Positions 1,338 to 50,034 are shown, numbered from the stretch's first letter. The stretch: DNA of 64,000 bases from a virus (IMGVR_UViG_2609459792_000007), one strand, 5' to 3'. The notes: generated by a model not told the origin, from the sequence alone. Numbers and translations: made by a program.

Positions 1338-2105
1338 TTATGCCGCGCTAACACTATGTTCAGTCCTAACCACCCCAACCTTCACAAAAGGGCTACCGTA
1401 GCTTGGTGGCTTCTTGATTAATTTGCCTACATACAGTTTTCTAATATGCTCATCGGCTATTCTGCCAACAAATTCATATCGTTTTGTGTCGGGGCCAAGA
1501 GCTATATCCCTTGTAAAGTACTGCTGAGAACCGGCTTTGACCCAGCATTCAATCTGATAAACTTCCATTATTAGCCCACCATATGTAGCGTAGGCATATT
1601 TGAGATTCTCGTCTCTTGGAACCTTTGCCCATACGCCACGCGTAGCTTCATATAATGCCAGAGCGGACATTCCTGATTTGTAGGTGCTGTTTAGCAGGAA
1701 GGCAAGACCGGCGTGCTCAGGAGCAATTTCAGTTTCCTCTTGCAGCACTAAGTGATGGTAGGCGTCCAGTGATATTCTGCCCATCATGGAACCACTTCCT
1801 CGAACCTTATTCGTAAGCTCTCCGACCCCCATAAGGTCGATGCATGTCGCCTCAACAAGTTTGGCTGTGGTTTCATCCATACCATGACGAAGAATATCTA
1901 TGCCTAATTTTTTATTAGCCAAAAGTTCTTTGATCCGCATGGATTTGGGAGAGTCATCGGGATACTTGATGTGATCGAGACAACGAGTCGATTTGCCTTT
2001 TCCTATGTAAAACGGTCTTTTCATCTTGTCTTCTGTATCATAGAGACAGTAAACATAGTATTTAGCCTTATCCAAGGATCTCGCGTATACCGATAAATCG
2101 TCCAT
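1338..2105 (-). CDS. GIY-YIG-like nuclease domain protein
   Basis: N-terminal YYVYCLYD...KRPFYIGKGKSTR resembles GIY-YIG motif; one of few minus-strand genes. Confidence 0.4.
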   Translation of the reverse strand: MDDLSVYARSLDKAKYYVYCLYDTEDKMKRPFYIGKGKSTRCLDHIKYPDDSPKSMRIKELLANKKLGIDILRHGMDETTAKLVEATCIDLMGVGELTNKVRGSGSMMGRISLDAYHHLVLQEETEIAPEHAGLAFLLNSTYKSGMSALALYEATRGVWAKVPRDENLKYAYATYGGLIMEVYQIECWVKAGSQQYFTRDIALGPDTKRYEFVGRIADEHIRKLYVGKLIKKPPSYGSPFVKVGVVRTEHSVSAA

Positions 2106-2215
2106 TATTGCATCTCTTAGCTACTGACTAATGCGTTCTATTTTACACATAAGTTTTTAATCAATTTAACAGGCTCAAAGTGTAGAGCTTCTGGGCGTCT
2201 AAGACGACAAGTTAT

Positions 2216-10081: not shown

Positions 10082-10156
10082 GATGGTGTAGCTCAGCGGT
10101 AGAGCAGTTGGCTGTTAACCAACTGGTCGGTGGTTCGAATCCACCCACCATCGCCA
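10082..10156 (+). tRNA. tRNA-Asn (anticodon GTT)
   Basis: Hand-folded cloverleaf: acceptor gatggtg/caccatc, D-stem gctc/gagc, anticodon stem gttgg/ccaac with loop ctGTTaa, T-arm ggtgg-ttcgaat-ccacc, CCA end. Confidence 0.85.
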
Positions 10157-10161
10157 ATTTA

Positions 10162-10248
10162 GGGGAGTTAGTCCGTAGAGGTAGCGGGGTAGACTGTAAA
10201 TCTACTGTCATGGAGACTCGGGTGGTTCGACTCCATCACTCCCCACCA
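10162..10248 (+). tRNA. tRNA-Tyr (anticodon GTA), long variable arm
   Basis: Acceptor ggggagt/actcccc, anticodon stem gtaga/tctac with loop ctGTAaa, T-arm ggtgg-ttcgact-ccatc, CCA; D-arm not cleanly canonical. Confidence 0.6.
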
Positions 10249-10252
10249 AATT

Positions 10253-31015: not shown

Positions 31016-32071
31016 CTATTTGCGAGTCTTTGCCTTGCGCAACTCTTCGAGAAGCGCCAGTTCTTCTTTACTCAACATGACCATTTTGCCTTCTTTTTCG
31101 TCAGGCACAACGTCGATAATGTCATCTTGATTCTCATCTGGGAGGCTATATTCCGTCTCATCATTATCGATTTTTGTTGATATTTGTGCCTGGCGTAACT
31201 TTGGCCGCCTATAGTGGATGACGAAGTAGACCGAGTTTCCGCGCTTAACTTCCGTGTAATCGAGATATCCTATCTCTCGCAGCTGTTCCATAGCCTTTCT
31301 TACCGTCGCATTCTGAGTAATAGTGCGACTTGTCAGATTAAGTCTGGCGCGTAAACGGGCTAGTGATATTGGTGCCGGATCAGGCGGCAAACTTTCAATA
31401 AAAGTATAAAGCGCCTGAGCGGATTCTTTTCTTGAGAGTTCGTTTATAGCCCGGAGTTGCAGAAGAACCTTTTTGTCGAACTGGTAGAGTTCGAAAATCT
31501 TGGGATCTGCTTTCAGTTCGACCGTATCGTGCTTGACACTATATTTTGCCGTTTGCACAAGATGCGTTACGTAAAACTCATCAGAGCCTTTGCTACGGAA
31601 CGAGATGGTATTTGTGGCAATACGGCTTAGCGAACTGTCCAGGCGTTTGCGTAACTTCGCTGATGACCTGGCGGTCGGAATGCCACACAGCCTTACAAAC
31701 TCAACGAACGGCAACGTGACAGTATCGCCAACGACCTTGTGTTTGGCAAACGCGTGGATTATTCCCACCCACGTTTTAAAGTCGTTATCCATATCAAGCC
31801 GAAGGCCAGAGATCCTTATGTCTTCGTACCCTTCGGCTTTTGCCAGAGACAGCTGTTTGAGTTCAGCAGAGGCATCCATAGAGACCATTTGCCCCTTTCT
31901 TCCTCTGGATGTCGATTTCAGCGTCGGAACGAAGAGGCCCAGACGCATCAAAGCAACAGGCTGAACAGTGTTATTAGTGTTAGGAACCAACGTAACAACT
32001 TCGCCTGTCTTTTTATCTGTTTCTGAAAATGCTTCAACGATCGCTATGTTTTTATTGCCGTTTTCGCTCAT
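31016..32071 (-). CDS. repA: RepA/RepE-family iteron-binding replication initiator
   Basis: 351 aa; flanked by iteron arrays on both sides; from memory resembles RepFIB/P1-type RepA (not searched). Confidence 0.75.
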
Positions 32072-33713: not shown

Positions 33714-34799
33714 ATGACTTTGCCATACGGCGTCATTTCTGACTGCCACTACCACAAATGGGATGCGTTCTCCACGACGAACGCTGAGGGGCTTAACTCC
33801 AGACTTGAAATACAGTTGGAAGCAACGAAAGAAGCAGCCATCGCCATGAAGAAGGCCGGTTGTAAGTACATGTTGGTTGCCGGTGATACATTTCACGTCC
33901 GAGGAACTGTGTCCCCTTCTGTTTTGCATTACGTAACTGAAACGTACAAGTGGATTATCAACGAGCTTGATCTGACAGTAGTAATGCTGGCCGGTAATCA
34001 CGATCTTGAAACCAACGATTCAGTATATAGCGCCAACGCAGCAGCATCGCTGAGTTCTATCGGCGTGGTAATCGTATGTGGCAAGCGCCCACACTCAATA
34101 AAAATTGGTGATGTGACTGTCCACCTGATTAGCTGGCGTAACAATCATGCGGAGCTTATCAGCGATCTGAAAGCATTACGTAAGAGCGTAGAAGGTGATA
34201 ATCATGACGTTGTTATCCATACATCCATTAACAAAGCCATTCCAACAATGCCTGACGTCGGTATCGATGCGCAGGAGTTAAAGGATATCGGCTTTCGTCT
34301 CGTGCTTAGTGGGCATTACCACAACCACAAAGAGGTCATTCCTGGAGTTATCAGTGTCGGTGCACTGACTCATCAAAATTGGGGAGATGTTGGATCTCTG
34401 GCTGGCTACATGATCGTAAACCCGGACGGCAGTTTCAGTCACTACGAAACCAGTGCGCCTAAATTCATTAACCTGGAAGATGATGTTGCTGATGACCAAA
34501 TTCGCGGCAACTACGTGCGTTTCCGCGCCTTAATTGAGAACGATGAAGAAGGCATTAAGTACCAGAACATCCTCAAAACAATGGGTGCAAAAGGTGTCGT
34601 GTGCAACTTCATCCGTAAGTCATCAATGATGGAAGGTACAGCCAGCACAACTGAAACCAGCAAAATCGATAGCCTTGGAGAGTCGGTATCTGCTTATTGC
34701 AAGATTGTCCACGATACTGACGGCGGATTTGATCTGAGCAAATTGGATATTTTGTGTCAGGAAATCCTCACCGAAGCGGAGAGTTCGGAGGCTGTGTGA
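33714..34799 (+). CDS. SbcD/Mre11-like nuclease (calcineurin-like phosphoesterase)
   Basis: Motifs ISDCHYH, VAGDTFH, LAGNHD, SGHYH; conserved cacATG start context. Confidence 0.75.
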   Translation: MTLPYGVISDCHYHKWDAFSTTNAEGLNSRLEIQLEATKEAAIAMKKAGCKYMLVAGDTFHVRGTVSPSVLHYVTETYKWIINELDLTVVMLAGNHDLETNDSVYSANAAASLSSIGVVIVCGKRPHSIKIGDVTVHLISWRNNHAELISDLKALRKSVEGDNHDVVIHTSINKAIPTMPDVGIDAQELKDIGFRLVLSGHYHNHKEVIPGVISVGALTHQNWGDVGSLAGYMIVNPDGSFSHYETSAPKFINLEDDVADDQIRGNYVRFRALIENDEEGIKYQNILKTMGAKGVVCNFIRKSSMMEGTASTTETSKIDSLGESVSAYCKIVHDTDGGFDLSKLDILCQEILTEAESSEAV

Positions 34800-48604: not shown

Positions 48605-48859
48605 ATGAATCACTTTAAGGAAACTAACATGTCATACCCGACTAATGTCGTTGCGCTCGTAGAGAGCGATTTTCTGGCCCAGGCCCGTGAAATGATGAAA
48701 GATCGCGAGCAGGCTTTCAACTTGTACGAATGGGCAATTAAGTGCTTGCATCTTGGGGAGCATCGCGAACTTGTTGAACAGCTTTTAGGTGAGTTGATCA
48801 ACGAGGTGTTTGCCTTGAATGTTCAACTACATGGTCGAGAAAATAATCAATCGAAATGA
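48605..48859 (+). CDS. Hypothetical small protein
   Basis: 84-aa ORF; alternative ATG at 48629. Confidence 0.35.
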   Translation: MNHFKETNMSYPTNVVALVESDFLAQAREMMKDREQAFNLYEWAIKCLHLGEHRELVEQLLGELINEVFALNVQLHGRENNQSK

Positions 48860-49443
48860 TAGATAAGTACAAACTATTCATAAAGTGAATTGTAAGTGCT
48901 AAGATCTGATAGTTTCCAGTCGTAGACTGGAGACTCGACCTGATGGGTGGGGGTAAGCGTCACTGGCGTCAGGTTTAAAAAAGCTCACTACCAGCGTAGA
49001 ACCGGTGCCGTTTAGGTGTCGGGGAAGGGGGAACCAAAGTGAGCGGAGACAAGGGTCACTTTATGATTGTCGAGTCTGGGGTGTTTCGAGAGGTTGAATC
49101 CAGTACTCCCCTTCATAAAGTGTGGGAAGATCTCGGTTCTGGGGTGCTGTCATCCATAACTTCCCAAGTCTAAGCTGGCAGTAGACTTAGGCCATAACTT
49201 TTCAGGTTATGAAACGACCAGGTTGGTGAGGGATTTTTATACTCACCTCCCTGGGAGAGTATTACCTGAAAAGACAACCTCTCACTTCGTTCGAGGTGAA
49301 CTTCACTCACTTCGTTCGTTCAGTTCAGGTTTATAAAAACCTGTTCTGGGAAGTAATTTGTTTATTTTAATAATTATTAACACGCACGCGTGTGCGCACG
49401 CGCGAGGAAAAAAATCGGCGCGGCGCTTGATTCAGGAGTTTAT

Positions 49444-50034
49444 ATGACGACGAAGACACCAGCCCGATCGCAAGAAAAAACTCGCAAAAAAGCCAAAAAC
49501 AAAACTTCTCCCCGCACCAATTCCACAACGCCTGTCGTAGAGTTCAATCCCCAGCTTAAAACCGTGAAAATCTTCAGTGATGGCTCTTGCCTTAAAAATC
49601 CGGGTGGCCCGGGCGGTTACGGTATAGTTCTCCAGTATCGTGGTGAGGAACGCGAGTTCTCAGATGGTTTTCATAGCACCACCAATAACCGCATGGAGAT
49701 GATGGGGGCACTTATCGGGCTGGAGCGTTTGAAATATCCATGCAACGTTATTTTGCACTCTGATAGCCAGTATCTGAAAAACGGCATGACACTGTGGATG
49801 AAATGGTGGAAACGCAATGGATGGATGACTTCTGACAAAAAACCGGTAAAGAATGTTGATCTGTGGAAGCGTCTGGATGAGGCCGCAAGTCGACATAATG
49901 TTCGCTGGAAGTGGGTTAAAGGCCACGCCGGGCATCGTGAAAATGAAATATGTGATCGACTCGCGAAGATCGCAGCTTTTTCCGCAGCAGATATGCCTCA
50001 CAAGAAAGATATTGGTTTTGTTTATAACAAATAG
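49444..50034 (+). CDS. Ribonuclease HI
   Basis: [36 protein letters not shown]; start at ATG 49444 with RBS aggag; basic N-terminal extension. Confidence 0.85.

Follow-up and report, generated by a model that had tools for sequence, protein, structure and literature searches.

What occupies the gap between orf84 and the RNase HI gene of an SSU5/pHCM2-type phage-plasmid of E. coli? The gap (positions 48860-49443) lies in the viral record IMGVR_UViG_2609459792_000007, of which a stretch of 64,000 nucleotides (nt) was analysed and is called the window throughout. It holds no open reading frame (ORF) of 60 amino acids (aa) or more, as the first-pass annotation of this DNA had said, the longest being 44-46 aa; a second (lytic) origin, a packaging site and a noncoding RNA locus had been put forward for it. 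The noncoding RNA locus is the proposal borne out here, by a conserved promoter, strand-specific compensatory changes, the lack of a conserved reading frame and a signal in RNA sequencing (RNA-seq). We describe a stand-alone gene on the + strand (window 48877-49357) for what we call the type A RNA, and argue that it probably specifies a trans-acting noncoding RNA of ~445 nt, stable and folded, which serves lysogeny in the plasmid state.

Conservation, fold and strand of the type A RNA

The window was aligned with SSU5, pHCM2 and one Klebsiella plasmid, and identity was calculated per 100-nt interval. The best-conserved stretch of the neighbourhood was found to be 48936-49334, with 93-98% identity to SSU5 and pHCM2. 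Identity to the Klebsiella plasmid was 79% in the co-varying 5′ part (48936-49035) and rose to 93-97% between 49036 and 49334. In these comparisons, the flanking genes were 70-83% identical. At the level of sequence, purifying selection on the RNA segment was thereby shown to be stronger than on the flanking genes. An alignment of 50 distinct type A sequences (A1) revealed mostly invariant columns in the 3′ 300 nt, several of the invariant blocks being long; the block 49122-49166 has a single variable column (49144, G/A), and the block 49276-49318 has none. In 49 full-length copies from gut metagenomes, extra changes were rare (1-3 sequences apiece), and several of them were C-to-U changes opposite G, by which pairing on the + strand is retained. 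High identity sets in right after a variable 5′ hairpin, conservation falls in 49357-49379, and the limits of high identity coincide with those of the RNA.

Such identity might in principle come from a recent recombination sweep between phage-plasmids through a segment without function. In its favour, the phage-plasmids are mosaic and include a copy that is recombinant or deleted. However, a sweep does not fit the match between the limits of identity and those of the RNA, nor the 5′ third, which diverges clade by clade via pair-preserving changes alone; the same pattern recurs in about 690 plasmids from at least nine genera, and the segment is expressed. We therefore give this explanation very little credence.

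The fold was predicted with RNAalifold on the 50 A1 sequences. The consensus has 128 pairs, and 99.7% of the cells are standard pairs. Double-sided changes that keep pairing were found at 8 pairs, in 70 cells; none of 500 shuffles equalled the observed pairing, the count of double-change cells or the covariation score, and when partners were slid by 1-3 columns only 1-5 double-change cells remained. Variation supports the helices P2, P3, P3a, P5, P7 and the 3′ hairpin (Table 1); no variation was seen in P6, P8, the central-domain closing helix or the repeat module, which are predicted from energy alone. Three pairs of P2 are compensatory (AU/GC, CG/UA and AU/GC), with 100% of its cells paired. 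In P3, which also holds a single-stranded G-rich run, GGGGAAGGGGGAACC, the pair 48985:49042 varies as UA/UG/CG, and the pairs of P3a vary as GC/GU/AU with none broken. The loop and inner stem of the 3′ stem-loop differ between clades, and the stem co-varies (49330:49339, UA/GC); a palindrome noticed in the first-pass annotation, ggtttataaaaacc at 49328-49341, is confirmed and forms the apex of this hairpin.

The many G-U pairs in the helices fix the strand as +. At least 14 helix positions are G-U in their commonest form, which would be A-C on the opposite strand. Folding of the + strand gave -165.8 kcal/mol versus -138.5 kcal/mol for the - strand, both better than shuffled sequences. The composition is also G-rich, with a GC skew of +0.15 versus +0.03 to +0.06 in the flanks and 11 G-runs versus 3 C-runs. 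As far as sequence comparison can tell, type A is a structured RNA read from the + strand.

The strand-specific constraint bears directly on the packaging site and, more widely, on a duplex-DNA site of any kind (packaging signal, partition site or operator array), at which the repeats and palindromes would be bound by protein. The region does contain an exact 13-nt direct repeat, the palindrome above and a GC palindrome, and the record of Klebsiella phage vB_KpnS_p4727 begins ~300 nt upstream of the element. But the constraint is one-stranded, tolerating G-U pairs and C-to-U changes opposite G, which indicates RNA and not duplex DNA. Moreover, there are two repeat copies only and no array (Tandem Repeats Finder reported nothing in the region), in a close relative the genes for terminase and ParB-like proteins are far from the element, and the region appears to be transcribed as a discrete unit. 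The packaging-site proposal gained no support, and a duplex-DNA site is very improbable.

The direct repeat itself, CTCACTTCGTTCG, is real, although it had been placed ~10 nt off (at 49271-49285 and 49295-49309): its 13-nt copies occupy 49281-49293 and 49306-49318, with a spacing of 25, and by our own estimate the chance expectation of exact 13-nt repeats in 584 nt is ~0.003. Both copies are invariant across A1 (50/50), and their columns are unchanged in the 49 metagenome copies, where the nearest change, at 49305, falls just 5′ of copy 2 (2 sequences). Copy 1 and the central segment CGAGGUGA can form a hairpin of 7 bp with a GUUC loop (-8.2 kcal/mol), and CGAGGUGA and copy 2 one of 8 bp (-9.4 kcal/mol), the two being mutually exclusive. 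The repeat looks like a two-state module, in which the copies would be alternative partners of the central segment; as its bases are invariant in A1, covariation speaks neither for nor against this model.

Immediately upstream of the fold, a putative sigma-70 promoter can be read, with the -35 TTCATA (48877-48882), a 17-nt spacer and the extended -10 TGcTAAGAT (48897-48905). A consensus promoter scan missed it, since its hexamers match at 8/12 positions only. The same layout was found in other clades as TTTAAA-17-TGaTAAAAT, TTCAAA-17-TGaTACAAT and, in the Klebsiella clade, TGTAGAAT, where the surrounding bases differ; the -10 variants across clades are TGnTAAGAT, TAAAAT, TACAAT and TAGAAT. Because this layout is kept in every clade and the 5′ hairpin adjoins it, transcription should start at ~48911, the predicted range being 48911-48913. 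That hairpin, P1, has unrelated sequences in 8 clades and is formed in 8/8 of them, with folding energies from -3.9 to -16.8 kcal/mol, each time ending just before an invariant CUCG. At the other end of the gene an invariant CUGGGAAGUAA directly follows the 3′ stem-loop, and in most clades a U-rich tail (49357-49368) comes after it; the Klebsiella clade is without the U-run.

An 11-mer that holds the -35, TTCATAAAGTG, recurs inside the RNA in the E. coli clade (sites 48877-48887, 49112-49122 and 49056-49066), and its complement is the other P5 arm. As other clades do not keep the copy in the promoter, the repetition may be due to chance.

A small coding gene across the region, which the first-pass annotation had named as the finding that would speak against a noncoding locus, is not apparent, its reading frame not being conserved. 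Several clades have indels of 1 and 2 nt that break the one frame with an ATG start (49062-49173), and the variable positions sit in pairs and loops rather than at third codon positions, with no codon pattern. In the phage-plasmid Cyrano, a GTG-extended frame of 44 codons (49039-49173) is annotated as CYRAN_81, and in a remnant in Buttiauxella the ORF is fused in frame with an upstream gene. An ORF exists, from either start, and carries an annotation, but the Buttiauxella fusion stems from a deletion of ~14 kb. The peptide is also unlike a type I toxin: the candidates for a hydrophobic ORF of a type I toxin-antitoxin (hok/sok-like) pair were not hydrophobic and were broken by indels in several clades. 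To judge from this pattern of variation CYRAN_81 is a spurious ORF, and that the region encodes one or more small proteins seems scarcely credible.

Expression in the lysogen and candidate functions

Published RNA-seq of E. coli LF82, which carries Cyrano, covers ten samples from lysogeny broth (LB), two more culture conditions and two macrophage-infection time points, and places CYRAN_81 at 12 times the prophage background (PMC9928086). This ORF corresponds to window 49039-49173 and thus reports on the type A RNA. Expressed as log2(fpkm+5), where fpkm is fragments per kilobase per million, its level over the 10 samples was 6.8-10.35, compared with 3.1-5.8 for orf84, 2.6-5.0 for RNase H and 6.4-10.35 for the putative repressor; in overnight LB the four values were 117, 9.5, 8.4 and 96 fpkm, respectively (PMC9928086). 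In the lysogen, the RNA of the element exceeds that of either neighbour ~12-14-fold, with RNase H ~14 times below it, and its level was shown to be about that of the prophage repressor mRNA. A signal so far above both neighbours argues for an autonomous unit that is active in the plasmid-prophage state, with little run-on into RNase H.

Two other Cyrano loci stand out in the lysogen. CYRAN_40, 15-fold in the published moron list, is a minus-strand hypothetical ORF over the Cyrano tRNA genes (L165:22-357), and is probably another false ORF that scores through stable RNA. No Cyrano gene is expressed more highly in the lysogen than CYRAN_43 (L165:1269-1823), at 723 times background; this minus-strand ORF of 184 aa has glutaredoxin and integrase on either side. 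It is absent from the window, and its flanks match window ~11515-11664.

How would a trans-acting RNA of this kind be made and used? Host RNA polymerase would initiate near 48911, at a constitutive sigma-70 promoter with extended -10, and the first 25 nt would form a terminal stem-loop of the type that shields primary transcripts from 5′-end-dependent decay. The remaining ~420 nt would fold into P2, the small P3 domain, the four-helix central domain and a 3′ module, in which CGAGGUGA could pair with either 13-nt copy and the 3′ stem-loop comes next. This stem-loop and/or the G+C hairpins 40-80 nt further on would stop or trim most transcripts before RNase H. The partner would be a conserved host or phage macromolecule, with the RNA as a scaffold or decoy and not as a short-seed antisense: nearly all of the 3′ 300 nt is fixed in eight host genera, loops included, and there is no conserved target on the phage-plasmid, so that binding of a macromolecule is most likely. 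The fixed place beside RNase H in a DNA-replication block suggests, as a guess, that the partner acts in replication or RNA-DNA hybrid metabolism.

The seed search for complementary sites on the phage-plasmid found 11-12-nt matches at chance level only. One 11-nt candidate target, at the ribosome-binding site of a small gene, was rejected: it is kept in SSU5 and absent from Klebsiella phage pJN2-26. A sponge of the CsrB/RsmZ type was rejected as well, since GGA occurs 8 times versus 8.4 expected and A.GGA once versus 2.0 expected; the type B RNA of the sister lineage (see below) is alike in this respect.

Several points weigh against a trans-acting RNA. The ends of the type A RNA are predicted from sequence, and about half of its helices are invariant, with energy support only. 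A scan for canonical terminators at its 3′ end found none, and some transcripts may accordingly continue into RNase H. The RNA-seq values are counts per ORF and not a profile, the strand of the reads is not established, and the high level could partly reflect the stability of a terminated leader. Finally, the alternative-hairpin module resembles an attenuator.

The main alternative is that the RNA works in cis, as a leader or attenuator for the RNase H operon. The fold would sense a signal, be it a protein, an RNA or a small molecule, and the repeat hairpins would then set stop at the 3′ hairpin versus read-through. The RNA is on the RNase H strand and directly upstream in both lineages, two near-isoenergetic and exclusive hairpins stand just before the 3′ stem-loop, and a leader in the OFF state would give just such an RNA-seq picture, with plentiful short RNA and a silent gene downstream. 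However, at two loci of the sister lineage (L095/L097) the type B RNA has a strong terminator and a convergent gene, yet it is conserved with compensatory changes. The RNA and RNase H are independent in both directions: RNase H relatives occur without the RNA or any such leader (L063/L067), and the slot RNA of the sister lineage persists where an opposite-strand gene replaces RNase H. No riboswitch, T-box or leader model of Rfam matches, and a sensor of 350 nt would be unusually large. We consider a leader unlikely, though it heads the alternatives.

Third comes a replication primer or lytic origin in the style of ColE1 RNA II or the T4 R-loop, in which a G-rich hybrid would be cut by the phage RNase HI and its 3′ end would prime the DnaE replisome. 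It is in keeping with this that a predicted transcript of ~450 nt from a constitutive promoter adjoins an RNase HI gene within the replication block, that the RNA is G-rich and that an A+T-rich stretch comes after it. Yet the GC skew has no turning point, being positive throughout and following gene direction, and neither a conserved antisense promoter nor a match to RNA I turned up; the - strand has a single promoter-like site (48918-48889), at or upstream of the RNA start and in a part without conservation between clades. The type B RNA ends in a hairpin and U8 terminator, by which it would be released; the lysogen makes the type A RNA at a time when expression of the lytic replisome genes is close to background (PMC9928086); and selection for so elaborate a fold exceeds the needs of a primer. 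With the repA replicon ~17 kb off and no tandem or iteron array, the origin proposed in the first-pass annotation gained no support, and we rate a primer or origin as improbable. The trans-acting folded RNA is thus the reading we favour.

Features, neighbouring genes and the type B RNA

The coordinates of the features are collected in Table 1. The region lies inside a long + strand block of DNA-metabolism genes. Upstream are nrdAB, thymidylate synthase, dihydrofolate reductase (DHFR), a 3′-5′ exonuclease, a Dam-type methylase and orf84, and downstream RNase HI is followed by TerB/TciA-like genes; the replication block also has a DnaB-like helicase, DnaE, a ligase, and 5′-3′ and 3′-5′ exonucleases. 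The plasmid replicon gene repA is at 31016-32071 on the - strand, ~17 kb upstream of the element. Pfam identified RNase_H and Dam only among the neighbours, and PADLOC found no match to defence systems among them.

Table 1. Features of the type A RNA gene and its slot (window coordinates), with the loci of the type B RNA
Feature	Position	Strand	Remarks
orf84	48605-48859	+	PHROG 5343, function unknown; left edge of slot
Promoter	48877-48905	+	sigma-70 with extended -10, read from sequence
P1, 5′-terminal stem-loop	48911-48935	+	directly at predicted start
P2 hairpin	48937-48975	+	15 pairs, four invariant G-U pairs
P3 domain	48983-49044	+	closing helix GCUCAC/GUGAGC; holds P3a (49002-49022)
Central multi-helix domain	49046-49283	+	P5, P6, P7, P8
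Central-domain closing helix	49046-49056 with 49277-49283	+	predicted only, never varies
P5	49057-49122	+	compensatory 49059:49120 CG/UA
P6	49123-49166	+	invariant, predicted only
P7	49168-49192	+	compensatory 49169:49191 CG/UA/UG; 49170:49190
P8	49198-49273	+	invariant, predicted only
Repeat module	49281-49318	+	CUCACUUCGUUCG twice around CGAGGUGA (49292-49299)
3′ stem-loop	49320-49356	+	UCAG..CAGGUUU / AAACCUG..CUGG; holds palindrome
A+T-rich spacer	49357-49379	+	variable length and sequence
RNase H leader hairpins	49380-49427	+	CG/CA tract, A-run, G+C-rich segment before ribosome-binding site
RNase HI gene	49444-50034	+	196 aa; Pfam RNase_H E = 6.8e-44, residues 40-178; PHROG 531
Type B loci	L095:3255-3700; L097-L100 ~2530-2975; L101-L110 ~1755-2200		RNA at 3266-3696 in L095

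The alternating purine-pyrimidine tract reported earlier was confirmed, one base off: this CG/CA tract spans 49380-49404 (25 nt) and not 49381-49403. It is outside the RNA core and belongs to the RNase H leader, which folds into hairpins at 49380-49393 and 49394-49426; against shuffles, the Klebsiella version alone is more stable (z -4.4). The CG/CA leader may act as an operator, provide a second stop for the RNA or be a leader structure. The length of the tract varies: 11 nt are missing from pHCM2 and more from the Buttiauxella copy, and additional CA/CG units are present in the Salmonella Anatum clade (L069). The pattern resembles that of slippage in a simple repeat, the tract overall being kept.

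The RNase HI protein has a basic N-terminal extension of ~40 aa. Its start differs among public records: PGAP uses a GTG at 49390, within the CG/CA tract, and the SSU5 record starts ~150 nt further upstream, within the RNA (L001:3363-4127). The ATG at 49444 is preceded by a GGAG ribosome-binding site, and it is there that the clades begin to align as protein. Two RNase H genes 78-79% identical to that of the window (L063 and L067, 2501-3088) are located in another phage context, where the RNA is absent and a truncated metallophosphoesterase gene and a 133-aa ORF precede RNase H. nhmmer did not find the element at these two loci or at those of RNase H relatives of 41-49% identity.

The region is 100% identical to that of plasmid NZ_CP020118.1. 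In all, 12 phage records and 687 plasmids of PLSDB matched it, with 86-100% coverage and 88-99% identity, the plasmid hosts being Klebsiella, Escherichia, Enterobacter, Salmonella, Citrobacter, Cronobacter, Shigella, Kluyvera and Raoultella. The type A RNA is also carried by pHCM2 of Salmonella Typhi and many Klebsiella plasmids. Among complete E. coli genomes the element was present in 232/5426, on a plasmid every time, and no RefSeq annotation lies beneath it there; no chromosomal homologue was found in 30 E. coli genomes, where matches were limited to 31 nt at E = 1. A scan of human-gut metagenomes found 54 contigs with the element, all near-identical and some of ~110 kb. In GTDB species an invariant 20-mer was found in 2 Kluyvera contigs and 1 decayed Buttiauxella copy; three other matches, in G+C-rich genes, are due to chance.

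The Buttiauxella copy, on contig NZ_LXEP01000001.1 of B. gaviniae (L084:4828-6188), is a decayed SSU5-like remnant. Its ~14 kb deletion fuses the 3′ end of a metallophosphoesterase gene (window homologue 33714-34799) to RNA position 49036, and the metallophosphoesterase consequently reads through the RNA in the CYRAN_81 frame. Homology stops just before the RNase H ribosome-binding site, beside LysR and MFS genes, and repeat copy 2 has one change (CACTTTG).

Homologues of orf84 were found in 728 plasmids, followed by either the type A RNA or a second one, which we call type B. Forty of the 728 homologues are <60% identical. A different noncoding element of ~430 nt fills the slot in a sister lineage, represented in PLSDB by 30 Klebsiella plasmids whose replicons are of other types. 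A methylase gene and orf84 are upstream of it, and downstream is RNase H or, in two cases (L095/L097), an opposite-strand gene. Type B has a promoter (TTTACT-17-TATCAT), a 5′ hairpin with compensatory changes, a G-rich composition and a terminator of a hairpin and U7-8. Across 11 distinct copies, 99.3% of 106 predicted pairs are kept and 9 pairs are compensatory; conservation is 87-95%, versus 77-88% in the flanks.

Type B thus shares with type A the slot between orf84 and RNase H, a sigma-70 promoter, a co-varying 5′ hairpin, G-richness and many helices, but differs in its predicted helix arrangement, its canonical terminator and its less extreme conservation. nhmmer gave no match between the two, and local alignment scores were within the shuffle range. 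Either an ancestral RNA has diverged beyond recognition or the slot has been refilled. In the Moellerella lineage (L096), the slot is taken by another gene and a type I restriction gene, with no clear RNA gene.

Comparison with known RNAs

The Rfam scan proposed in the first-pass annotation matched no family. At the gathering threshold, the 4227 models of Rfam 15 found three tRNAs only in the whole window, at ~10.1-10.3 kb, and a permissive search of 48700-49600 gave chance-level matches, the best with E = 0.067 and 21 bits versus a threshold of 56. A tRNA/tmRNA scan likewise found the distant tRNA cluster only; four tRNA genes (Asn, Tyr, Thr and Ser) are located at window 10082-10639. Type B did not match Rfam either. 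In the literature we found no description of the type A RNA, its sole trace being the spurious ORF in the LF82 moron list.

No other segment of this neighbourhood is as well conserved as this unannotated RNA, which the lysogen expresses. Annotation pipelines overlook it, place a false 44-codon ORF in it or let RNase H start too far upstream, within the RNA; a covariance model built from A1 would mend this. SSU5/pHCM2-type phage-plasmids are common in clinical Enterobacteriaceae, and some members of the family carry resistance genes. To our knowledge, folded RNAs of >400 nt beyond the universal ones are rare, and each is a puzzle worth solving; an E. coli host makes this one tractable, as deletion, pull-down and structure probing are routine. 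More tentatively, and with less than even confidence, we suggest that the slot is a dedicated RNA-gene locus with at least two unrelated folded RNAs, lysogeny-expressed effectors of a new kind. If so, they might for example form assemblies, of RNA only or of RNA and protein, that govern whether replication is lytic or plasmid-mode, or they might act on a conserved host machine, and few regulatory RNAs known in Enterobacteriaceae would be as large and as tightly constrained as type A.

Among known systems, the type III toxin-antitoxin system ToxIN is similar in its order of promoter, repeat RNA, partial stop and nuclease-family gene, the type A RNA being ~14-fold over the downstream mRNA. However, type A has two 13-nt repeats in a large unique fold and no tandem array of ~36-nt units, and its downstream protein is an ordinary RNase HI, not a ToxN/AbiQ endoribonuclease, with no PADLOC match.

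ColE1 RNA II resembles type A in being ~500 nt long, transcribed from a constitutive promoter, richly folded, G-rich and tied to RNase H. Type A differs in having no detectable RNA I antisense gene, a 3′ stem-loop and no origin signature, and its plasmid has an iteron-type RepA replicon ~17 kb away.

The immunity RNAs of phages, CI RNA of P4, c4 RNA of P1/P7 and CA RNA of N15, are ~70-80 nt long, with boxes complementary to sites on their own operon. Like type A, they are made in the lysogen from a constitutive promoter in or ahead of early genes, in a plasmid prophage, and have repeated short boxes and alternative pairings. Type A is unlike them in its length of ~450 nt, in its 11-nt match to its own element, which is at chance level, and in its lack of an Rfam match.

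Type A also resembles the large ‘ornate’ RNAs described in the motif papers of the Breaker laboratory. GOLLD, ROOL, OLE, raiA and HEARO are noncoding, conserved RNAs of several hundred nt with many helices. Type A matches none of their Rfam models, occurs in Enterobacteriaceae phage-plasmids whereas they occur in Firmicutes, Bacteroidota or environmental phages, and is expressed in the lysogen and not beside tRNA genes, which are ~38 kb away. It is like them in length, in its many helices, in strong noncoding conservation and in a context that is uninformative on function, and it is phage- or prophage-borne as GOLLD and ROOL are. Type A is thus a new family among the large structured noncoding RNAs of mobile elements.

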